DNA of 64,000 nucleotides from assembly GCA_902630355.1 (NCBI GenBank), contig CACOUL010000003.1, positions 14,284 to 78,283 of the forward strand. Direction: 5' to 3'. Source of the stretch: Planctomycetaceae bacterium (lineage in GTDB: Bacteria > Planctomycetota > Planctomycetia > Pirellulales > UBA7805). Under the pieces are notes generated by a model. That model saw only the letters and a list, made by a program, of their open reading frames with translations, did not search any database and was not told the origin of the DNA. This document shows positions 53,545 through 64,000 of the stretch, one piece after another (position 1 is the stretch's first letter; each line of letters opens with the position of its first letter). The position numbers were made by a program, and so were the translations under genes.

Positions 53545-54333
53545 GTGGTTCAGATGACGGCGACCGATGCGATGGCTATCGAACCCTTGCTCGAATTTCG
53601 CCAGGTCTCGTATGAGGCGGGCGGCCGGAGAATTATAGATCATCTGAATTGGACTCTCGAAGCAGGACAGCATTGGGCGCTGCTGGGTCCGAACGGGAGT
53701 GGAAAGACCACGCTCCTTCGACTGGCGACAGGCTACCTTTGGCCGAATGCCGGCGGTGCGATCTGGCGATGCGGCGAGCGATGCCTCGATTTACGTAAGT
53801 TACGAACGAGTATCGGTTGGGTTGCATCGCATCTGCTCGCCGCAGTTCCTCCAAGCGAGGTCGTGACCGATACGGTGTTGAGTGGCCGTTTTGCCGAGTG
53901 GGGCCTTCGTCCTTTCTCCCGACCGCTGCTGAGTGCCCACGACCGAGAGCGGGCCGATGAAGAGTTGAGGCGTCTGGGTGCCGAGAGCCTGGCCTCCCGC
54001 CCTTTTGGTGTACTCTCCCAGGGAGAGCAACAAAAAGTTATGATCGCTCGCGCGCGGATGGCCGACCCGCTCTTGATTCTTTTGGATGAGCCCTGTGCGG
54101 GACTCGACCCGGGCGGTCGCGAACGATTTTTAGCCGATCTCGAAGTGTGGCTTTCCGAGTCGATGGCACCCCGTGTGGTTTTCATCACGCACCACGTCGA
54201 GGAGATTTTACCCGCGATGACACATACCATGGTGCTTTCGCAAGGGCGTGTGGCCCGCTGTGGACGCAGCGAGGAGGTCATCGATGCGGCTCTGCTTGAG
54301 GGCACATTTCAGGCCCCCCCCCTGCCGCATTGA
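53545..54333 (+). CDS. ABC transporter ATP-binding protein (orphan, ModF-like)
   Basis: Walker A is [13 protein letters not shown], the signature is LSQGEQQKVMIARA and Walker B is LILLDEPCAGLD. There is no adjacent permease gene. The ORF starts with GTG, and an ATG lies at 53554. Confidence 0.85.
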   Translation: MVQMTATDAMAIEPLLEFRQVSYEAGGRRIIDHLNWTLEAGQHWALLGPNGSGKTTLLRLATGYLWPNAGGAIWRCGERCLDLRKLRTSIGWVASHLLAAVPPSEVVTDTVLSGRFAEWGLRPFSRPLLSAHDRERADEELRRLGAESLASRPFGVLSQGEQQKVMIARARMADPLLILLDEPCAGLDPGGRERFLADLEVWLSESMAPRVVFITHHVEEILPAMTHTMVLSQGRVARCGRSEEVIDAALLEGTFQAPPLPH

Positions 54334-54400: not shown

Positions 54401-55903
54401 CTATCGGGGGCGTGCCGGCGAAGGACTCCCCGGAGGTCTTTGGAGCAGAGCCGCAGGCCGGCGACTCGCCTCCAGTTCCTCGCGCGCCGTCTGATAGGCA
54501 ACATGCAACCTGCGGACGACTTCAGGATGCTGCTCGGCAAGATTTGTCGTCTCCCCGACATCGGCCACGGTGTCATAAAGTTGGACCGGGTGCGTCGAGA
54601 GCTGTTCTCTACGGGAGGGTCGATCTTCACGCTTTGTGCCCTCTTGCCATGGGTAGTACTTCCATTTGCCGCTGCGGACCGCTCCGGGACCGTGAAGAAG
54701 ACAATAGGATTCGTGCGGACTCTTGGCGCCCGGCTTCCCCTCCATCAGCGGCCAAATGTTCTTGCCGTCGATCGGTTTCTCGGGCAACGAGCTGCCGGTG
54801 AGGAACGCGAGGGTGGGGAGCAGATCCACACTCGCGGCCACCTGCCGACAGACCCGATCCGCCGGAATTTTTCCGGGCCACCACATCACGGTCGGCTCGC
54901 GGATGCCACCATCGTAAACGCTTCCCTTCCGCGACCGTAGCGGCAACGAGGATCCAACGGCCGCACCGTTATCGCTCGTAAAAATCACCAGTGTCTGCTG
55001 CGCGATTCCGCCCCGCTTCACCGCTTCGAGGATCTGGCCCACCGACCAGTCGACCTCTTCGATGGCATCCCAGATCAATCGATCGGTTCTATTTTCAAAC
55101 TCTTTAGAAACCGCCAGCGGCAGGTGCACCATGGTATGCGGCAAATAAAGAAAGAAGGGCCGCTTTTCCTGCGACTCGATAAACCGGATAGCTTCTTCGG
55201 TGTAGCGTTTCGTCAAAGTCGTCTGGTCAGCCGGATATTCTATAACTTCCTCACCGCGCATCAGCGGCACCCAGTTTACATGTTTGTGGCCCCGCTTGAG
55301 TTGCTCGAGGGAAATCCCTTCGCGAAGGACGATATCGCGCGAAAGTTTGTTGGCCGGATCAATCCACATATCGTTGCTGTAAGGAATTCCATAGTAGGAA
55401 TCAAAACCTTGCATGGTCGGCAGGCACGGAGGCAGATGCCCCAAATGCCACTTGCCAACGCAAGCCGTTCGGTAACCGACATCGCGAAGCATCTCAGCAA
55501 GGGTCACTTCGTCAGGATGCAGACCCCGCTCACTATGCGGAAAAAGTACTGCGTCCATGCTGAGACGCTGATAGTGGGTCCCGGTCAAAAGTGCGGTCCG
55601 CGACCCGGAACAGACGGCACAGCCGACGTAAAAATCGGTGAAGATCATCCCTTCCTTCGCCATTTGATCGAGGTGGGGCGTGCGAGGCCCGCTGGCACCG
55701 TTGAAGCCGACGTCGCCATACCCCATATCATCGATGAAGATCAAAATGACATTCGGCGGCAGTTCTGCCGATCGCTCAGTTTTTTCTGCCGCTGCCACGT
55801 ATGGCAGACTGGCATCCGGAAGAAATAAAATCAGTAGTGCTGCTAGCACCACCGGGAAGCGACTTCTGCAAGCGACGTCATTCAGCGGATGGCAAATTCG
55901 CAT
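54401..55903 (-). CDS. sulfatase (formylglycine-dependent, arylsulfatase A-like)
   Basis: The leader begins at the internal ATG 55903. It is followed by PNVILIFIDDMGYGDVGFNGA, the FGly motif CSGSRTALLTG and GKWHLGH. Confidence 0.9.
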   Translation of the reverse strand: MRICHPLNDVACRSRFPVVLAALLILFLPDASLPYVAAAEKTERSAELPPNVILIFIDDMGYGDVGFNGASGPRTPHLDQMAKEGMIFTDFYVGCAVCSGSRTALLTGTHYQRLSMDAVLFPHSERGLHPDEVTLAEMLRDVGYRTACVGKWHLGHLPPCLPTMQGFDSYYGIPYSNDMWIDPANKLSRDIVLREGISLEQLKRGHKHVNWVPLMRGEEVIEYPADQTTLTKRYTEEAIRFIESQEKRPFFLYLPHTMVHLPLAVSKEFENRTDRLIWDAIEEVDWSVGQILEAVKRGGIAQQTLVIFTSDNGAAVGSSLPLRSRKGSVYDGGIREPTVMWWPGKIPADRVCRQVAASVDLLPTLAFLTGSSLPEKPIDGKNIWPLMEGKPGAKSPHESYCLLHGPGAVRSGKWKYYPWQEGTKREDRPSRREQLSTHPVQLYDTVADVGETTNLAEQHPEVVRRLHVAYQTAREELEASRRPAALLQRPPGSPSPARPR

Positions 55904-56038
55904 CTGAGATATCCCCGTTCGATCATCCTCATCACTCCACACACTCTACGTCATTCTCTCGCGCCTTGAAGGTGTGGAAAAGGCCGGACAAGGGAGATTT
56001 GCTCTTGCTGCCCGTCGCGCGATTTTCTACAAGCCAGC

Positions 56039-56383
56039 ATGGTATTACTCGGAATATGTCAATCGAACGGCCGATGGGTCATTCTGCTGTTGTTGCTCGG
56101 TCTACAACTCGTCGCTTCTGCCCCGAGCGGTGCCGAACCTCCACCTGCGAACGATAAGCGATCGCGAGAGCTTCGCGCAATGTTGACCGTGGGGCTCATG
56201 CCCGCTTCTCCCGCGCAGGAAGCCTTTCTCGACAAAGTCGTGTTTCTCGTCGCCCGACAAACCCTCTCGATGGAGATGGTTCAAGGAACCTTCATCTGGG
56301 CACGTCGGCAGGCTGACTGGCCCTATCCGTATTTCGAGCAGGCGCTTCGACGACGGGCAAAGCGATTGAAGATCGAAATATAA
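56039..56383 (+). CDS. hypothetical exported protein
   Basis: 114-aa ORF with a signal-like segment (WVILLLLLGLQLVASAPSGA). No family was recognised. Confidence 0.35.
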   Translation: MVLLGICQSNGRWVILLLLLGLQLVASAPSGAEPPPANDKRSRELRAMLTVGLMPASPAQEAFLDKVVFLVARQTLSMEMVQGTFIWARRQADWPYPYFEQALRRRAKRLKIEI

Positions 56384-57082: not shown

Positions 57083-57311
57083 TGGGCAACGACCGCATCG
57101 TCTGCCGGTCATCAATTGCCCACGGAGGTCCAATACGAACCCTCCATGATGCGTGAATTTGATTCGTTTTCAAGTGGGCTGCGGAACAGCGGCCCGGTGG
57201 CCCGGAAGGTGCGGAGGGTGAATTTTTATCCATCGCGAAAAAATATCGTTTTTTCGCTGTGTTTTTACCGTGGAGTGTCCCAGTTTGCATCGCAGTTAAA
57301 GATCCAGTCCG

Positions 57312-58439
57312 TTGACGATTTCAGCCCCCCCGCATGACGATTTTCTCTCCGCCCGGTGGCGGCGTACTTTCAGGCGCCGCTTACGAGTGTGGTATGCGCA
57401 TCAAGCCCGCGATTTACCGTGGAGACGGACCCGCGACCCGTACCATGTTTGGGTCAGTGAAGTCATGCTCCAGCAGACACAAGTTCAAACCGTCATCCCG
57501 TATTTCGAGCGATTTTGTGCTGCGTTTCCCACACTCTCCGCGTTGGCCGCTGCCGACGAGCAGCAGGTGTTACAGCTTTGGGAAGGTTTGGGCTACTACC
57601 GCCGCGGCCGACAACTGCATGCCGCTGCCAGAGTATTGGTGGAAACCAACGGAGGTGCGATTCCACGGTCTCGGTCAGCGTTAGAAAAATTGCCGGGGAT
57701 AGGTCACTACACCGCCGCGGCCATCTTGTCGCTCGCTTTCGATGCGCGTGAAGCAATTCTCGAAGCGAATACCATCCGGCTTTTTGCTCGGCTTGCTGCC
57801 CTTCCACTCGAGACCACGACGGCTCAAGCGCAAAAGCAACTTTGGGCGATTTCTGAGGGCGTGCTTCCACGTAAAGAGGTAGGCCTGTTCAATCAGGCCC
57901 TCATGGAACTCGGCAGTCTTATCTGCACACCTCAGTCGCCTCAGTGTTCAGCCTGCCCGGTTGCCGATCTCTGTCTGGCAAATCGAAAAAGCCTGCAGCA
58001 TAAAATCCCAGTATTGAAGCGACGCCCGCCGGTTGAAAAAATTAGAGAGGCTGCCGTGGTCATTTGTCGCCGCAAGCAAATCTTATTGCGCCAGTGTGGA
58101 CCAAAAGAACGATGGTCCGGTTTGTGGGATTTTCCTAGAATGCAGGTACAGCCATCCCGGAAATGGTCCACAGAAGAGCAGATTGGTGATGCCGTTCGCG
58201 ACTTGACCGGCTATTCGGTGTGTCTCGGCGCACGTTTTAAAAGAATGACGCATGCCGTGACGCGGTATCAGATTACATTGGATTGTTATGAGGCAAAACT
58301 TGCCTCGACGCGCCGTAAAAGTGGAAACCGAGAATCCCTCCGTTGGGTATCATTAGAAGAGATCAATGAGATGCCGCTGAGTGTGACAGGACGACGCATC
58401 GCTCAGCAGATGATCGAAGATTCCAGGGCGGATGCCTGA
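57312..58439 (+). CDS. mutY: A/G-specific adenine DNA glycosylase
   Basis: WYAHQARDLPWRRTRDPYHVWVSEVMLQQTQV, the HhH-GPD motif LPGIGHYTAAAILSLAF, and the Fe-S cluster loop CTPQSPQCSACPVADLC are present. A C-terminal NUDIX-like domain follows. The ORF starts with TTG, so the start is uncertain. Confidence 0.88.
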   Translation: MTISAPPHDDFLSARWRRTFRRRLRVWYAHQARDLPWRRTRDPYHVWVSEVMLQQTQVQTVIPYFERFCAAFPTLSALAAADEQQVLQLWEGLGYYRRGRQLHAAARVLVETNGGAIPRSRSALEKLPGIGHYTAAAILSLAFDAREAILEANTIRLFARLAALPLETTTAQAQKQLWAISEGVLPRKEVGLFNQALMELGSLICTPQSPQCSACPVADLCLANRKSLQHKIPVLKRRPPVEKIREAAVVICRRKQILLRQCGPKERWSGLWDFPRMQVQPSRKWSTEEQIGDAVRDLTGYSVCLGARFKRMTHAVTRYQITLDCYEAKLASTRRKSGNRESLRWVSLEEINEMPLSVTGRRIAQQMIEDSRADA

Positions 58440-58532
58440 TGGAATCTTTTGGTCTTGCTCCTTCGTGGGTGGCCGTTATCATCGAATCCTCCTCAAGATA
58501 ATACGAAGCGATTTTTGTGAGCCTGGCCGCAA

Positions 58533-59207
58533 ATGCTGTTACTGAAAGACATTCAAAAATCTTTTATCGAACCGGATGGCAAGACGCTGCCGATACTCGG
58601 CATCGAGGAGTTTTGTGTTGCCCGCGGTGAGCAGATGGTGCTCGTCGGAAGAAGTGGCAGCGGCAAAACAACACTTCTGCATGTGATTGCTGGAATCAGT
58701 CGTCCCGATCAGGGAGTGGTCGAGATTGCCGGGAGAGATATCACCCAATTGTCAGAGGCTGGGCGGGATCGATTCCGGGCTGAAAAGATCGGTTATGTGT
58801 TTCAGACGTTTAATCTTCTCCCGGCCTTCAGCGCTTTGGAGAATGTGCTTCTGGGAATGACTTTCACTCGCAAAGCGGCGAACGTGGCGAGGGCCCGTGA
58901 ATTACTCGATCGTGTCGGTCTGGGGCAGCGACTGACGCATCGTCCGGCGGCACTCTCGGTCGGCGAACAGCAGCGAGTCGCCGTAGCGCGGGCTCTGGCA
59001 AATAAACCGCAAATCCTCCTCGCAGATGAACCGACAGCCAACATTGACACAGGAAATCAACAACAGATTGTCGACTTGATCCGCGAAACATGTCGCGAGG
59101 AGGAAGTGGCCCTCGTGATGGTAACCCATACTCCAGAAGTGTGTTCTCAGTTCGATCGCGTGGATGAACTGGCGGAGATCAATCGCGTTGCTAAGAGGGC
59201 AAAGTAA
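58533..59207 (+). CDS. ABC transporter ATP-binding protein (MacB/LolD/FtsE-type)
   Basis: Walker A is [18 protein letters not shown], the Q-loop region is [12 protein letters not shown], the signature is [14 protein letters not shown] and Walker B is [12 protein letters not shown]. Confidence 0.88.
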
Positions 59208-59251
59208 GGTGTTACAGTGCGTACAGAGAAGAGACCTGTGAGTATCGACCC

Positions 59252-60826
59252 ATGAGTTTGTGGACCATAGCTTGGCGGAGTATTCGACAAAGGAGTTTGT
59301 CTTCTTTGTTGACCGGCCTGTCGATCGCGCTGGGAACCGCGTTGGTGGTGATTGTACTTGTAGTCTACGGGGTCGTGGCCGAATCATTCCGCGATGCGGC
59401 CCAAGGCTATCATTTGATCCTGGGCGCCAAGGGCGGAAAGTTGCAGCTCACACTCAATACGGTCTTCCATTTGAGTCAACCGATCGAAAATATCCCTTAC
59501 TCGTTTTACAAGGAATTTACCGAGTACAAGGATGCGGATGGCAGGCCGACACGAGGGAAGTATGCTTCAGCCGTTGAAGTCGCAGTCCCCTATTGCCTAG
59601 GGGACAGTTACCAGGAGTTTCGCGTTGTCGGCACGACCCCCGATCTGTTCAATAAACTCAGTTACGGAACGTTTCCCGACGGAACGCCCAAATTTTATGA
59701 GTTCTCCGCGGGGAAGAATTTTACCGCAGACGATTTTCGCGGTGCCGTGATTGGTGCGGTGGCCGCCAAGAAAACAGGTTTGCAGGTGGGAGATCATTTT
59801 CCCATCACGCACGGCTTGGCTGAGGATGAAGATGCACATGTTCACGAGGAGGATGCATTTCACGTGGTCGGAATTTTGCGACCAACCGGGACTCCCAACG
59901 ACCGGGCTGTTTTCGTCAACATGGAAGGTTTTTATCTCATTGCCGATCATGCCAAGCCGGTAGAGGCGGAAGATGATGAAGCGGAAGGTCCGCAGGCGAC
60001 ACAGATCGTTCAATTACGAGAGGCGAAGGACTCGTTGCAGCAACTACTCGAGCGGGACACGCTCAGCGCAGAGGCTTCAACCGAGATCGAGAGAATCGAT
60101 GGGTTACTTCGTACGATTCTTGGAAAGTTGAGCCCCAGTAAGGCAGAAGTCAAAAAATCACAATCCGCAGGAAAGAGTCCGGACGATGTTGCGGGTTCCG
60201 CTGATGGTGGAACAACCGGCGGTATTGCTCCGCTTCCCGAAAATCAGCGCGAAGTGACTTCGGTTTTGCTTTTGCTCAAGAACGATGTATTTTCTCAGAT
60301 ACTGCACAATAAAATCAACGAGGGTAGCGTCGCCCAGGCAGTTTATCCGAGCCGCGAGGTAGCCAAACTCTTTGAAGGTATCGTGGGGCACGTGCAGACT
60401 ATTTTATTAATCCTCGCCATTCTTGTGGTCGTTGTTGCCGGTGTGGGGGTGATGGTGAGTATGTACAATTCAATGAGCGATCGTAGTCGTGAAATAGGCA
60501 TTATGCGTGCCTTGGGGGCGGCGAGGGTGACCGTGATGAGTATCGTACTGTTCGAGGCGATTCTCTTGGCGGTACTCGGTGGGGTCGCCGGCGTGTGTCT
60601 TGGGCACGGAACGATCGGCGCCTTTGCACCGGTCATCACGGCGAATACGGGAGTGATGATCAATTTTTGGGAATGGGCGCCAGCCATCTATCTTGGAGGT
60701 TGGTCTGTTTCGCCGGAACTGGTGCTGATTCCGTCCCTACTTTTACTAGCCGTTGTCGTCGGTTTCCTCCCGGCTGTTGTGGCTTATCGGACCGATGTTT
60801 CCCGCGCGCTGAGTCACTCTCCCTGA
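59252..60826 (+). CDS. FtsX-family (MacB/LolC-type) ABC transporter permease with enlarged extracytoplasmic domain
   Basis: TM1 (LLTGLSIALGTALVVIVLVVYGVV) is followed by an extracytoplasmic region of about 330 aa. The FtsX-type C-terminal three-TM bundle follows, with the motif SDRSREIGIMRALGA. Confidence 0.85.
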   Translation: MSLWTIAWRSIRQRSLSSLLTGLSIALGTALVVIVLVVYGVVAESFRDAAQGYHLILGAKGGKLQLTLNTVFHLSQPIENIPYSFYKEFTEYKDADGRPTRGKYASAVEVAVPYCLGDSYQEFRVVGTTPDLFNKLSYGTFPDGTPKFYEFSAGKNFTADDFRGAVIGAVAAKKTGLQVGDHFPITHGLAEDEDAHVHEEDAFHVVGILRPTGTPNDRAVFVNMEGFYLIADHAKPVEAEDDEAEGPQATQIVQLREAKDSLQQLLERDTLSAEASTEIERIDGLLRTILGKLSPSKAEVKKSQSAGKSPDDVAGSADGGTTGGIAPLPENQREVTSVLLLLKNDVFSQILHNKINEGSVAQAVYPSREVAKLFEGIVGHVQTILLILAILVVVVAGVGVMVSMYNSMSDRSREIGIMRALGAARVTVMSIVLFEAILLAVLGGVAGVCLGHGTIGAFAPVITANTGVMINFWEWAPAIYLGGWSVSPELVLIPSLLLLAVVVGFLPAVVAYRTDVSRALSHSP

Positions 60827-60852
60827 GAAGGGATTTTGGAGTGTATTGATTG

Positions 60853-62274
60853 ATGTCGGTTGCTCAAGAAATGGGCCAGTTTGTGAAACGCACCATTTTC
60901 TTTTTCCTGGCTTTCCAGATCATCTCCGCGGTGGCCCTCGCCTGTTCGATTTGTACCAGTCTCTCGCCGACGCTGTGTGACGAAATGGCCGCAGCGGAGT
61001 TGGCCATTATCGCACGGTACGTGCAGACTCCCGAGGTCGGCCCAGGTGTCGATGACCCCGACGCCTATAAATCGACGTTTCAAATTGATGAGGTTCTCAA
61101 AGGGACGATTGATCTTCAGGAAGAGGGCGTTGCCAGGGTTCTTTTTTTCCCGGGTAAGACCGCTATGGCAGGTGATCATTATTTAATGCACGGCAATCGG
61201 ATTGAGAGTGATGAGGGAGGCGAGTTGGTGATTCGATGGTTGACGCCCATCGCGGTCACCGACGAAGCAATGCACTATCTCCGTCGTATGTGGAAAATCC
61301 CCGAAAACGACGTCAGCCGACTTCAGTTTGCCACACCCTATCTTAATAGTCCGGATCCGATGTTGCGCCGCGATGCTTTCGATGAATTTGGCAAAGCACC
61401 TTATGAATTACTGGAGGAGTTAGGACCGGAACTCGATAAAAACGACCTCATAAAAAAAATCGAAAGTCCGGAAACCTCTTCAAATATCAAAAAACTTTAC
61501 TTCACACTACTTACCATTTGTGGCACAAAGAGTGAATTACCGTTTATCGTGTCGCAGATCGAAAAAGAGAAAAGTTCAGCGAGCGAATCGCTTCCTGCAC
61601 TCATTGCGTGCTACGTGAGCCTCGCGGGCGAGGCTGGTCTGCCCTTCATCGAGCAAACTTATTTATCAGAGGAGGGCTCGGATTACGAGCGGCGAGCCGG
61701 TGCGGCAATCACCGCTTTGCGCTTTCACGGTCAGGAAGCCTCGGTGATCGAGCGAGAGAAGATTGTAGAGGTATTTCATCATATGCTCAAAAGGCCAACA
61801 CTCGGTGCGCGGATATTGAGTGATTTGGCACGATGGGAAGATTGGTCGGTGGTCGACCGGGTAGCAAAAATGTTTGTCGAGGCTGAAGGGGATGCGTTAT
61901 GGGTACGGGAGCCGGCCGCACGGTATCTGCTCGCATGTCCAAACAATGAAGCGGCGCAACAGATCGGGAAGCTAGAGGAAATCGATGAACTTGCGATTCG
62001 CAATGCGCGTCGCTTCGCGCTACCGCCTACAATATCTCCGGCAGCTCCTGTCGCCTCTCCCCAGGCCGGGCCGCAGGGTGAAGGATCCGTTTTGCGAGAC
62101 TCGCAGAGAGCCGTTTCTCCCGGCGGGCCGGAGGAGGAGCCAAATAGAGAAGAAAGTGCAGACGCTTCGACGTCGCGTGCTGCCTGGCAGTACCTCGTGT
62201 GGCTCGCCGTAGCCTTGATATTCGTGGTATTATTGGGATGGGCATTGCTGAAGGGGCGAAAGCAATCAATTTAA
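60853..62274 (+). CDS. exported protein of unassigned family, paralog A (lipobox-like Cys + CxxC, HEAT-like repeats, C-terminal TM anchor)
   Basis: The signal peptide ends in AVALACSIC. The body is collinear with the downstream ORF (shared blocks YK[ST]TF, LR[RG]DAFDEF, LYFT[LM]L, DLARW[EK]DW, and WVR followed a few residues later by ACP). The C-terminus has a hydrophobic helix (YLVWLAVALIFVVLLGWALL). A TTG at 60850 immediately precedes the ATG. Confidence 0.6.
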   Translation: MSVAQEMGQFVKRTIFFFLAFQIISAVALACSICTSLSPTLCDEMAAAELAIIARYVQTPEVGPGVDDPDAYKSTFQIDEVLKGTIDLQEEGVARVLFFPGKTAMAGDHYLMHGNRIESDEGGELVIRWLTPIAVTDEAMHYLRRMWKIPENDVSRLQFATPYLNSPDPMLRRDAFDEFGKAPYELLEELGPELDKNDLIKKIESPETSSNIKKLYFTLLTICGTKSELPFIVSQIEKEKSSASESLPALIACYVSLAGEAGLPFIEQTYLSEEGSDYERRAGAAITALRFHGQEASVIEREKIVEVFHHMLKRPTLGARILSDLARWEDWSVVDRVAKMFVEAEGDALWVREPAARYLLACPNNEAAQQIGKLEEIDELAIRNARRFALPPTISPAAPVASPQAGPQGEGSVLRDSQRAVSPGGPEEEPNREESADASTSRAAWQYLVWLAVALIFVVLLGWALLKGRKQSI

Positions 62275-63516
62275 ATGAATCGTGGAGTGGGAAGGGTGCC
62301 GGTGCATTTCATATCAACCATCTTCGTTGCATTAACGCTGTTGATCGCTTGCGACTGTAGGGTACTGGCGTGTCCTTTCTGTCGCCCTGTTAAAACGACC
62401 TTTACCGAGGATATCAATGCGGCCGATGTCGCGGTGCTCGGCGAATTAATATCTCGTCCGCAGCGACCGGATACCAATGAAGGAGAGATTCCGGCGGCCG
62501 ATATTATCGATTCCTATAAAACGACTTTCAAAATTCAAAAGGTGTATCGCGGTGACGCACGGGTTAATCCTGGCGACGAGATTGTTGCAATTTATACGGG
62601 CGATGCCCCGATCGGTACGAATTGTTTACTTCGAGGAATTGGTGAAGATGAATTGCAGTGGGCACCGCCTATCCCGCTCAGTGCCCGCGCTCAAAAATAT
62701 GTTGAAGAAGTACTCGAATTACCGGAGAGTGGTGCAGGAAGACTCAATTTCTTTGAGGACTATCTTGAAGATGAGGATGCCACACTGCGGGGGGATGCAT
62801 TCGACGAATTTGCCCGTGCGGATTATCAGGCGCTCAAGGATATCAGTACACAGATAGATCGACCCCGGTTGCTCCGCTGGATCCAAAACCCGGAAGTCAC
62901 TCCGTCGAATCGTCGACTCTACTTCACCATGCTCAGTGTCTGTGGTACGGAGGCGGACGGGAAATTGCTCCGCGAGATGATCGTTTCAGGCGACCCGACT
63001 CAGCTAAAGGGCCTCGATTCGCTGATTTCCTGCTATTTGACCCTCCGGGGTGCCGATGGCATCCCGTTGATCGAGGATCAATTTCTTCGGGGCGGCGTTT
63101 TTTGGGACCCCGAATATGTTCATACGTATGCAGCAATTATGGCGATCCGCTTCCAAGGACAAGAGGGAGACATCATTCCGAAAGAGCGGCTGATTGAGGC
63201 CCTGCGGATTGTTTTGGATCGTCCCGAGTTGGCGGATTTGGTGATTCCCGATCTCGCCCGCTGGAAGGATTGGGACTCGATGGCCCGACTGATTCAGATG
63301 TTCAAGAATGCAGGTAAAAAATCGAGTTGGGTCCGCGTGCCGATCGTGAATTTTCTTCGGGCGTGTCCGCTTCCTGAGGCCAAGAAAGAGTTGGAACAAC
63401 TCGCAAAGATTGATCCCGATGCGGTACGCCGTGCGACAACATTTTTTCCCTTTGCACCGGGAAATCGAGGAAAGAAAACTGAAAAGGGAAGTGATTCTAC
63501 GGGCGAGAAAAAATAG
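62275..63516 (+). CDS. exported protein of unassigned family, paralog B (lipobox-like Cys + CxxC, HEAT-like repeats)
   Basis: Its ATG directly abuts the paralog A stop codon (TAA 62272-62274, ATG 62275-62277). The signal peptide ends in RVLACPFC. The protein is collinear with paralog A along its whole length but has no C-terminal TM helix. Confidence 0.6.
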   Translation: MNRGVGRVPVHFISTIFVALTLLIACDCRVLACPFCRPVKTTFTEDINAADVAVLGELISRPQRPDTNEGEIPAADIIDSYKTTFKIQKVYRGDARVNPGDEIVAIYTGDAPIGTNCLLRGIGEDELQWAPPIPLSARAQKYVEEVLELPESGAGRLNFFEDYLEDEDATLRGDAFDEFARADYQALKDISTQIDRPRLLRWIQNPEVTPSNRRLYFTMLSVCGTEADGKLLREMIVSGDPTQLKGLDSLISCYLTLRGADGIPLIEDQFLRGGVFWDPEYVHTYAAIMAIRFQGQEGDIIPKERLIEALRIVLDRPELADLVIPDLARWKDWDSMARLIQMFKNAGKKSSWVRVPIVNFLRACPLPEAKKELEQLAKIDPDAVRRATTFFPFAPGNRGKKTEKGSDSTGEKK

Positions 63517-63588
63517 TCAGCGCTGCCTCCCGCCGAAGCAGTCGTTTTTTCCCCATCGAGGACCGGCTTAAGGTAAAGAAGCTAAACG

Positions 63589-64000
63589 ATGAGTGCGGAT
63601 GTTCAATTCAGTGAAACATTGGATCGCGATCTATCAGGTGGAGACTATCGCGCCGTGTCCGGGGCTGCGGTTACGAGTGTTGCTCTAGGATTTCTCTCTA
63701 TCTGCGTACTGCTCACCATCTACTTGGCCGTCATTCCACTGGTGGGCATTCTGGTCGGTTTATATGCCATTTTGCAGATCAAGGCTCGACCCAAAGAACT
63801 CACGGGCCGTAGCATTGCAGTGGTGGGGATTGTTTTATCTCTCGCGTTTCTGATCGCGGGCGGAAGCTTGGCGGCTTACGTGTACGCGACCGAGGTTCCG
63901 CCAGGTTACACGCGTATTTTTTATTCTCAGTTGCAACCGGAGGAAGGCAAAGTGGATCAGAAAGTTCCTCCTCTGGCAGAATCGCTCGACGGGGAAAAGG
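63589..64000 (+). CDS. small integral membrane protein (DUF4190-like), 3-prime truncated by the window end
   Basis: The reading frame from ATG 63589 is open to the end of the window. It has two or more Gly/Ala/Ile-rich TM helices flanking a basic loop (AILQIKARPKELTGRSIAVVGIVLSLAFLIAGG), as in DUF4190-type proteins. Confidence 0.5.
   Translation, partial: MSADVQFSETLDRDLSGGDYRAVSGAAVTSVALGFLSICVLLTIYLAVIPLVGILVGLYAILQIKARPKELTGRSIAVVGIVLSLAFLIAGGSLAAYVYATEVPPGYTRIFYSQLQPEEGKVDQKVPPLAESLDGEK

Follow-up and report, generated by a model that had tools for sequence, protein, structure and literature searches.

A planctomycete operon that joins a probable Zrg-type MacB-like ABC transporter to a family of exported CPFC-HEAT proteins

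Near the end of a 64,000-nucleotide (nt) stretch of contig CACOUL010000003.1 from a Planctomycetaceae bacterium (the window, i.e. the whole stretch of DNA that was analysed), genes for an ATP-binding cassette (ABC) ATPase and its permease are followed by two genes for exported proteins of an unassigned family and by the start of a gene for a small membrane protein. This raises the question of what kind of transporter is encoded and what its unusual partners contribute. The original prediction had regarded the locus as a multi-gene envelope module tying the ABC pair to the exported family and the small membrane protein, and as a candidate for an undescribed system. The module proved to be real and conserved; the system, however, is very probably a planctomycete variant of the Zrg/PA4063-PA4066 type, which is described but poorly understood. 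What is new in it is the exported CPFC/TIMP-like/HEAT family, together with a membrane-anchored duplicate of the DUF3299 protein and an insert in the permease.

An open reading frame scan, together with the sequence at the window end, bore out five co-directional genes on the + strand at 58533-64000, with intergenic gaps of 44, 26, 0 and 72 nt, in that order. These genes encode an ABC ATPase of the MacB/LolD type that resembles ZrgC and PA4064 (58533..59207, 224 amino acids), an FtsX/MacB-type permease with four transmembrane segments (59252..60826, 524 amino acids), paralog A (60853..62274, 473 amino acids from the ATG, with a TTG at 60850), paralog B (62275..63516, 413 amino acids) and the product of gene 5 (63589..64000), which is truncated by the window end and comprises a DUF4190-like membrane hairpin and the start of a DUF3299-type domain with an OB fold. 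The relative L004, a contig of a Pirellulales metagenome-assembled genome, is collinear with window positions 57161-63998 at 93.5% nucleotide identity and shows the order ATPase, permease, A, B, DUF4190-DUF3299 gene and DUF3299 gene (gene 6), followed by a convergent sulfatase gene. The same six genes are carried by a 76%-identical relative. The unit is thus a six-gene operon, the first five genes of which lie in the window.

The family to which paralogs A and B belong gave more than 2,373 matches in a database clustered at 90% identity and 2,780 clusters at 50% identity (E values up to 1e-3), and relatives are encoded in at least 586 species-level genomes. The 80 loci that were kept came, to judge by their titles, from Planctomycetota, except two labelled only 'bacterium'. 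Synteny was counted over 81 non-duplicate loci, the denominators being the loci with enough sequence on the side concerned. The gene order was conserved across Planctomycetota: the DUF4190-DUF3299 gene lay directly 3′ of the paralog gene in 67 of 69 loci, the ATPase and permease genes lay 5′ of it in 45 of 58, and a separate DUF3299 gene was present in 52 of 69. With relatives in so many species-level genomes and with conserved neighbours, the arrangement is far beyond chance. The pair of paralogs, though real in the window, turned out to be a lineage-specific trait. Of the 81 loci, 21 have two copies. The window's clade alone has them in tandem; elsewhere the second copy lies 3′ of the DUF3299 gene. 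The divergent A-type copy was restricted to the window's clade and locus L027. Clustering of neighbouring genes over the 81 loci revealed smpB, lipA and lipB as the only recurrent flanking genes and no metal genes, which places the operon among core-genome genes. No relatives of the family were detected in a scan of viral contigs, paralog B itself had no exact match on record in public assemblies, and in the searched literature no paper on the planctomycete module was found and no source names the paralog proteins. Paralog genes without an adjoining ABC pair could be observed in L013, L018, L033, L034, L035, L055, L057, L058, L064, L065, L075 and L080, in most cases with the DUF4190-DUF3299 gene beside them; L034 and L064 continue with a gene for a multi-transmembrane protein of approximately 520-560 amino acids.

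The ATPase matched PF00005 (ABC_tran) with 119.8 bits. Its best NCBIfam models were LolD, YbbA, DevA, FtsE and MacB, all of them under their equivalog cutoffs. The permease matched PF02687 (FtsX) with 49.2 bits (cutoff 25.5) and PF12704 (MacB_PCD) with 39.4 bits (cutoff 27), while its nearest NCBIfam models, ADOP, MacB and LolC/E, remained far under the curated cutoffs. Hydropathy placed its transmembrane segments at residues 25-43, 384-402, 431-449 and 491-509, with a large loop between the first and the second. The enlarged periplasmic domain that had been predicted could be confirmed, since this domain spans approximately 340 amino acids (residues 44-383), of which about 100 (residues ~232-330, acidic and of low complexity) have no counterpart in a proteobacterial relative of 416 amino acids. 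When the permease was compared with the solved structures of MacB, YtrF, LolF and LolE, the match was confined to the C-terminal FtsX region. Among plasmid records, the best relatives outside Planctomycetota matched through the first transmembrane segment and the periplasmic core at 31-36% identity. In a pairwise comparison, the Phaeobacter permease was 36% identical over residues 10-227 (E 4e-31), and the ATPase was 42% identical to the ATPase of the same Zrg-like cluster. Residues D118, H187 and H198 (window numbering) were invariant in 60 aligned permeases, two proteobacterial ones included.

The permease relatives lie in clusters that span three other phyla. The Phaeobacter cluster consists of genes for a FUR-family repressor, a DUF2796 protein, ATPase, permease and DUF3299 protein; that of Chondrinema (Bacteroidota) of genes for a GTP-binding protein, MerC, ATPase, FolE, a FUR-family repressor, permease and DUF3299 protein. 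Catenovulum carries genes for DUF3299 protein, ATPase and permease, Alisedimentitalea for an HlyD-like protein, ATPase, permease and DUF3299 protein, and two Deinococcota clusters for alkaline phosphatase, a small unassigned protein, ATPase and permease. On the basis of these comparisons, the planctomycete ABC pair very probably belongs to the DUF3299-linked Zrg/PA4063-PA4066 subfamily. Zrg-type MacB-like transporters have a DUF3299 protein as accessory, namely ZrgE or PA4066 (PMC9817125, PMC11481552); ZrgE is encoded in the zrgABCDE operon, which is regulated by Zur (PMC9817125). ZrgB spans the membrane with four helices and resembles MacB in its periplasmic domain, and when zinc is limiting the system supports growth (PMC9820375). 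The split MacB-type transporter PA4064/PA4065 is controlled by Zur, affects cobalt content and has been put forward as an exporter of pyochelin-cobalt; PA4066 is said to be invariably associated with it (PMC11481552). The Zrg-like clusters on the Chondrinema plasmid (L088) and the Catenovulum plasmid (L084) are both without DUF2796 and both adjoined by a MerC-domain gene, and the Catenovulum cluster is also adjoined by a gene for a 'cytochrome C' of 409 amino acids. In a lineage-specific island of Vibrio vulnificus L4, consecutive genes code for ABC permease, ABC ATPase and a pair of DUF3299 proteins (PMC12777771), with DUF3299 doubled as in the planctomycete operon.

The fifth gene had been described as DUF4190-like, and this held for its N-terminal hairpin only. 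In the window its product reached 30.4 bits with DUF4190, under the cutoff of 35, and hydropathy showed hydrophobic segments at residues 38-56 and 76-94. Full-length orthologs comprise 226 amino acids (L004, 6432-7112), and ortholog residues 101-226 aligned with the gene 6 product in hhalign at 99.7% probability (E 1.3e-25). The C-terminal half is therefore a DUF3299 domain, only the start of which is contained in the window. The gene 6 product of L004, encoded just beyond the counterpart of the window end with a 4-nt overlap with gene 5, has 199 amino acids, the lipobox FVAAC and a DUF3299 domain; its ortholog in L001 scored 32.1 bits with the Pfam model of DUF3299 (cutoff 22). The claim that none of the known accessories of such transporters is present thus fell, as the accessory type of ZrgE and PA4066 is present twice. 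Both products carry the motif CCFG, which is kept in at least 90% of orthologs (n=73 for gene 5). An ordinary lipobox was found in 24 of 54 DUF3299 gene products, the whole clade of the window included. The best Protein Data Bank (PDB) match of a planctomycete DUF3299 protein was the weak one to 4hsp (E 0.059), which is PA4066 (PMC8561739). The Pfam model DUF1980_C remained sub-threshold on the DUF3299 genes (17 bits, cutoff 25.9). In the searched literature no paper on the function of DUF4190 was found, and the papers on DUF1980/YcgQ were uninformative. A relationship of the paralog family to the DUF3299 proteins was also considered and was ruled out by hhalign, which showed the two to be unrelated.

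Paralogs A and B are 33% identical over 386 amino acids (E 3e-71) and so are indeed full-length paralogs of an unassigned exported family: Pfam and NCBIfam searches with both returned nothing above threshold, HEAT_2 (PF13646) being sub-threshold in B. Paralog A is composed of a signal peptide, the motif C-S-I-C (amino acids 31-34, nt 60943-60954), a predicted TIMP/NTR-like N-domain, a predicted HEAT/ARM solenoid, a low-complexity linker and a C-terminal transmembrane anchor (amino acids 448-466, nt 62194-62250). Paralog B is composed of a signal peptide, the motif C-P-F-C (amino acids 33-36, nt 62371-62382), the N-domain (~amino acids 37-150) and the solenoid (amino acids 137-389); it is without a C-terminal anchor and is predicted to be soluble. 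About one-third of the listed family members share the long low-complexity linker and the C-terminal anchor of paralog A. In long members (P0036, P0044, P0053; window 62194-62274) the anchor, which follows the linker, has a recurring shape, with W, (G)VP, a hydrophobic helix, ILRG or LRRP and basic residues, which could be a sorting signal beyond a plain anchor. C-P-F-C follows the signal peptide in 227 of 266 family members (C-S-I-C in paralog A), at a median position of 26. Within the family of paralog B, C33, C36 and C364 are invariant and C223 and C253 nearly so, and none of the 266 members has a His-rich stretch.

Both signal peptides literally end in L-A-C, which had been read as compatible with a lipobox. 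The PROSITE-type lipobox at that cysteine, however, was passed by paralog A (C31) only, and orthologs of A in close relatives failed it; paralog B passed at the earlier, clade-specific Cys26 (LLIAC) and not at Cys33. In 110 distinct family N-termini, position -1 was Ala in 104, position -3 was A, V or L, and position -2 was often R, E, Q, H, D or W. The (-3,-1) rule of signal peptidase I fitted 106 of them and the PROSITE-type lipobox 33; the classical lipobox pattern occurred in 15 of 120 family N-termini. Because of the fit to the (-3,-1) rule and the failing lipobox across the family and in orthologs of A, as against the ordinary lipoboxes in DUF3299 products, we infer cleavage before the first cysteine, which would yield the mature N-terminus H2N-Cys-Pro-Phe-Cys. 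The paralogs are, by these N-termini, probably not lipoproteins. The LLIAC lipobox of paralog B (amino acids 22-26, 62338-62352), which lies seven residues before CPFC and has Asp at +2, was confined to the window, L004 and P0001; the paralog B of this sub-clade might carry a lipid anchor instead of being soluble.

An AlphaFold2 model of full-length paralog B, built with a 53-sequence alignment, reached a predicted local distance difference test score (pLDDT) of 89.8 and showed a flexible CPFC tail, a beta-rich domain at residues 52-135 and an alpha-solenoid at residues 137-389 (pLDDT >90). A Foldseek search with this model returned generic ARM/HEAT repeats only (designed ARM repeats, importins and the PP2A A subunit). 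PF13646 scored 23.7 bits in B (cutoff 27.7) and 31.7 bits in the L003 homolog, and the solenoid is modelled as paired helices of the HEAT/ARM type. Since the full-length model returned just these repeats, the fold of the N-domain became visible only once this domain was modelled alone (pLDDT 90.8). Its top 11 Foldseek matches in the PDB were all NTR/TIMP domains (PCOLCE NTR, agrin NtA, TIMP-1), with probabilities of ~1.0, TM-scores of 0.45-0.52 and E values of 5e-3 to 2e-2, and the next matches were OB folds of ribosomal S12 (TM-scores of 0.26-0.30). A profile search gave a weak match to TIMP-1 (E 1.1), roughly in register with the N-terminus. Pfam TIMP was sub-threshold in seven of 36 members (best E 0.008), with 12.2 bits for PF00965 on paralog B (cutoff 23.1). 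The N-domain is, as modelled, a TIMP/NTR-like OB barrel with flanking helices. Only the two N-terminal cysteines are kept within the domain and the partner cysteines of the NTR disulfides are not conserved, so it is called a TIMP/NTR-like fold and not a member of that family. The CPxC motif is present, but it does not lie in a thioredoxin or glutaredoxin fold as far as the model shows: the fold search led to NTR barrels, and glutaredoxin matches were at E ~1. Sequence searches of the PDB with paralog B, the family profile and the N-domain profile gave nothing significant. In TIMPs the N-terminal cysteine acts at the catalytic zinc of the protease, and one extra residue abolishes inhibition (PMC2871463). 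No paper on bacterial TIMP-like proteins was found in the searched literature.

Hints of a metal come from the permease and from the periplasmic partners. In 17 of 58 relatives the permease insert at the same position is rich in His, Asp and Glu, with up to 25 His in 60 residues, and it is similar in composition to a His-rich loop in the DUF2796 (ZrgA-like) protein of Phaeobacter. A search with that protein (tblastn) gave no DUF2796 match in the window or in 83 loci. To judge from these sequences, the His-rich element of the proteobacterial accessory appears to be built into the permease in many planctomycetes. Conserved cysteines are found in every periplasmic partner. His-rich inserts could be observed in L003 (8442-9950), L012, L017, L029, L042, L044, L045, L046, L049, L052, L060, L061, L063, L067 and L073, and loci with such a permease often have, 3′ of the DUF3299 gene, a second paralog that is divergent.

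From gene content, synteny, subfamily, folds and conserved residues, we infer a metal substrate and the roles of the partners as follows. The planctomycete Zrg-type MacB-like machine might handle a zinc-type divalent metal in the periplasm, a function to which we give an even chance. The ATPase dimer and the FtsX-type permease with its four transmembrane helices would form a mechanotransmitting core, and the periplasmic domain of the permease would offer the Asp/His/His set (D118, H187 and H198) together with a variable loop. Around this core would stand four periplasmic partners, the two DUF3299 OB-fold proteins with CCFG and the two CPFC-HEAT paralogs. The DUF3299 protein of gene 5 would be held in the inner membrane by its DUF4190-like hairpin and that of gene 6 would be a lipoprotein; paralog A would be tethered by its C-terminal transmembrane helix and paralog B would be soluble. 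As cargo, the periplasm would supply a zinc-type divalent transition metal, either free or as a chelate. The CPFC-HEAT proteins may stand in for the His-rich ZrgA/PA4063 and capture or present the metal by an N-terminal cysteine hook, from which it could be passed to or from the periplasmic site of the permease and the DUF3299 proteins, while ATP-driven mechanotransmission would hand the cargo from partner to partner and carry it across the envelope or out of it. The metal might be imported or expelled, and for the proteobacterial systems, too, both import and export have been proposed. More tentatively, and as a possibility that we consider somewhat doubtful, the CPFC-HEAT proteins may represent a novel type of partner that handles metal in the periplasm for MacB-type ABC transporters, in which a bacterial TIMP/NTR-like domain uses its Cys-bearing mature N-terminus as metal hook and the HEAT solenoid docks on the permease and the DUF3299 proteins.

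Several observations weigh against a metal-handling machine of this kind. The window and the 83 loci yielded neither a Zur/Fur box nor a riboswitch nor a metal regulator. By eye, none of 55 upstream regions contained a Zur/Fur-type palindrome, only -35/-10-like elements, no planctomycete Zur motif being available for comparison, and no FUR homolog was seen in the window or any locus. The recurrent neighbours smpB, lipA and lipB are housekeeping genes, and the permease insert of the window itself is acidic and not His-rich. The CxxC and CC motifs of the periplasmic proteins may be nothing more than disulfides or redox centres, and the context of CPFC weakly resembles glutaredoxin. The TIMP/NTR matches are individually weak (Foldseek E ~5e-3, hidden Markov model E ~1) and the NTR disulfide partners are absent. 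In 13 of 58 loci the paralog and DUF4190-DUF3299 pair is without an adjoining ABC pair. PA4066 showed no evident zinc binding, and the proteobacterial function is itself disputed between zinc import and pyochelin-cobalt export (PMC11481552, PMC9820375).

Each of the alternatives accounts for a part of these data. A MacB-type pump might expel a small molecule, a metallophore or a peptide from the periplasm or the inner membrane, with the HEAT and DUF3299 proteins as adaptors replacing a MacA-type protein. MacB-type transporters are generally exporters, a role in pyochelin-cobalt export has been suggested for PA4064/PA4065 (PMC11481552), in one proteobacterial relative ATPase, permease and DUF3299 protein are accompanied by an HlyD-like adaptor, and the operon sits among housekeeping genes. 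We nevertheless consider efflux of this kind rather unlikely, since no adaptor, TolC-like or biosynthetic gene occurs in the window or the 83 loci, and both the conserved His/Asp site and the loops rich in His speak for the metal itself; if the cargo is a metal chelate, efflux and the handling of a zinc-type metal overlap. The cysteines could instead be redox-active. CPFC at a helix start and the CC motifs of the DUF3299 proteins would then belong to a thiol-disulfide module in which the ABC pair exports a reductant or supports a relay of periplasmic oxidoreductases. Glutaredoxins and several Dsb proteins have CPxC with an aromatic residue as their motif, the family profile weakly aligned CPFC and the next helix and strand to yeast Grx2 (E ~1), Pfam Glutaredoxin was sub-threshold in three of 36 members, and conserved cysteines occur in all periplasmic parts. 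Such a module is improbable, however, as all glutaredoxin similarities are insignificant, the model of the N-domain matches NTR/TIMP barrels and not thioredoxin folds, the strand expected before CxxC in a thioredoxin fold is here the signal peptide, and the relationship to Zrg-type systems and the His-rich loops would be left unexplained.

Slightly more doubtful still is a role of the paralogs as TIMP-like inhibitors that block a periplasmic metalloprotease or zinc hydrolase by their N-terminal cysteine and are switched on or off through mechanotransmission by the FtsX-type ABC pair, as EnvC is by FtsEX. The TIMP/NTR-like fold with a predicted mature N-terminal cysteine, the role of that cysteine in TIMPs (PMC2871463) and the established FtsEX-type control of periplasmic hydrolase activators are consistent with inhibition, but the neighbourhood has no conserved gene for a protease or hydrolase, the family has not kept the disulfides that give the TIMP wedge its shape, inhibition of proteases is absent from many NTR domains (PMC2871463) and the ABC subfamily is the DUF3299/Zrg one. 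The original prediction had suggested a Lol-like pump for lipoprotein sorting or envelope biogenesis, with the paralogs as lipoprotein cargo or partners. LolD is the best NCBIfam model of the ATPase, paralogs A and B pass the PROSITE-type lipobox at C31 and C26, respectively, and gene 6 encodes a lipoprotein in the clade of the window. The comparison spoke against this idea: the scores were 202.8 for LolD (TIGR02211; cutoff 307.75) and 35.4 for LolC/E (TIGR02212; cutoff 362.45), the lipobox fitted only 33 of 110 family N-termini, as against 106 of 110 for the signal-peptidase I rule, and was failed by orthologs of A, the periplasmic domain of the permease groups with DUF3299-linked permeases, and no LolA-type gene was found in the loci. 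We therefore regard a Lol-like pump as very unlikely.

With respect to transcription, a promoter-like sequence TCTTGC-N18-TATCAT was read at 58453..58482 on the + strand, 50 nt 5′ of the ATPase start. The arrangement CTTG(C/T)...TATCAT/TACATT is kept 5′ of the ATPase gene in relatives L001, L004, L005, L006, L009, L010, L027, L029 and L052; a consensus promoter scanner made no call at 58453..58482. Separate transcription units, for which a terminator at the T-run near 63545 or promoters between the genes would have spoken, did not emerge. The spacer with the T-run (63517..63588, +) had an RNA fold of -17.3 kcal/mol that was no better than that of shuffles (z = 0.22) and contains no convincing terminator; its hairpin is not kept in relatives, where an AGGTAAA element resembling a ribosome-binding site before the ATG of gene 5 is kept. 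A sigma-70 scan showed no internal + strand promoters within the gene set, and an Rfam search no riboswitch or RNA family in the window.

Further upstream in the window, at 56039-56383 (+), an open reading frame of 114 amino acids with a signal-peptide-like N-terminus lies between a sulfatase gene and rpsD; its counterparts in L001 and L002 have 116-119 amino acids and no Pfam match. A second ABC ATPase gene at 53545-54333 (+, 262 amino acids) has no adjoining permease gene and lies beside a convergent sulfatase gene (54401-55942). The same arrangement of lone ATPase and convergent sulfatase gene could also be observed in L001 and L002, 3′ of a ThuA/3-keto-disaccharide hydrolase gene.

Transporters of the Zrg/PA4063-PA4066 type are widespread, zinc-regulated and matter for virulence in Vibrio and Pseudomonas, and their DUF3299 partner is without a known role. 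The same core in a distant phylum allows a comparison that narrows the essentials (ATPase, Asp/His/His permease and DUF3299) as against the exchangeable parts. An orphan family of about 2,780 clusters at 50% identity, found in the position of the metal-binding partner, gains a context and a testable role, and its N-domain points to a bacterial TIMP/NTR-like domain, of which no description was found in the searched literature. If the CPFC-HEAT proteins are metal partners, Planctomycetota would have their own route for the trafficking of zinc-type metals, and the family would offer a handle on the mechanism of Zrg/PA4063-PA4066 systems.

Compared with known systems, the operon shares with the type VII transporters MacAB-TolC, LolCDE and FtsEX the FtsX C-terminal domain, the MacB periplasmic core, the topology with four transmembrane helices and an ATPase of the LolD/MacB type, and mechanotransmission as in these systems is presumed by analogy. 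Unlike them, it is far below the cutoff of all equivalog models and without a MacA/TolC, LolA or EnvC partner; an HlyD/MacA adaptor was found neither in the window, the gene tables of L001-L003 nor the recurrent neighbours, and occurs only in one proteobacterial relative. In DUF1980/YcgQ-type proteins, two transmembrane helices precede an extracytoplasmic domain that contains a CC motif. Gene 5 shares this layout, whereas the DUF1980/YcgQ proteins are partnered with a different permease family. The paralogs resemble the TIMP N-domain and NTR domains in their predicted OB-type barrel with flanking helices, a domain that follows the signal peptide directly and opens with a segment containing Cys. 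They differ from them in being bacterial and periplasmic, in having C-P-F-C and not C-x-C, in their fusion to a HEAT/ARM solenoid and in scoring under threshold with Pfam TIMP. The closest counterparts are ZrgABCDE of Vibrio and PA4063-PA4066 of Pseudomonas aeruginosa, with which the operon has in common a split ATPase and four-helix permease with a large periplasmic domain, the residues D118, H187 and H198, an obligatory DUF3299 partner and His/Asp/Glu-rich periplasmic loops somewhere in the system. In contrast to these, the planctomycete operon is without DUF2796 (ZrgA/PA4063), ZrgD and an adjoining FUR-family regulator. Its DUF3299 proteins number two, of which one is fused to a DUF4190-like hairpin and both have CCFG in place of the GACIH of the proteobacterial systems, and it adds one or two CPFC-HEAT proteins and the permease insert of ~100 amino acids.

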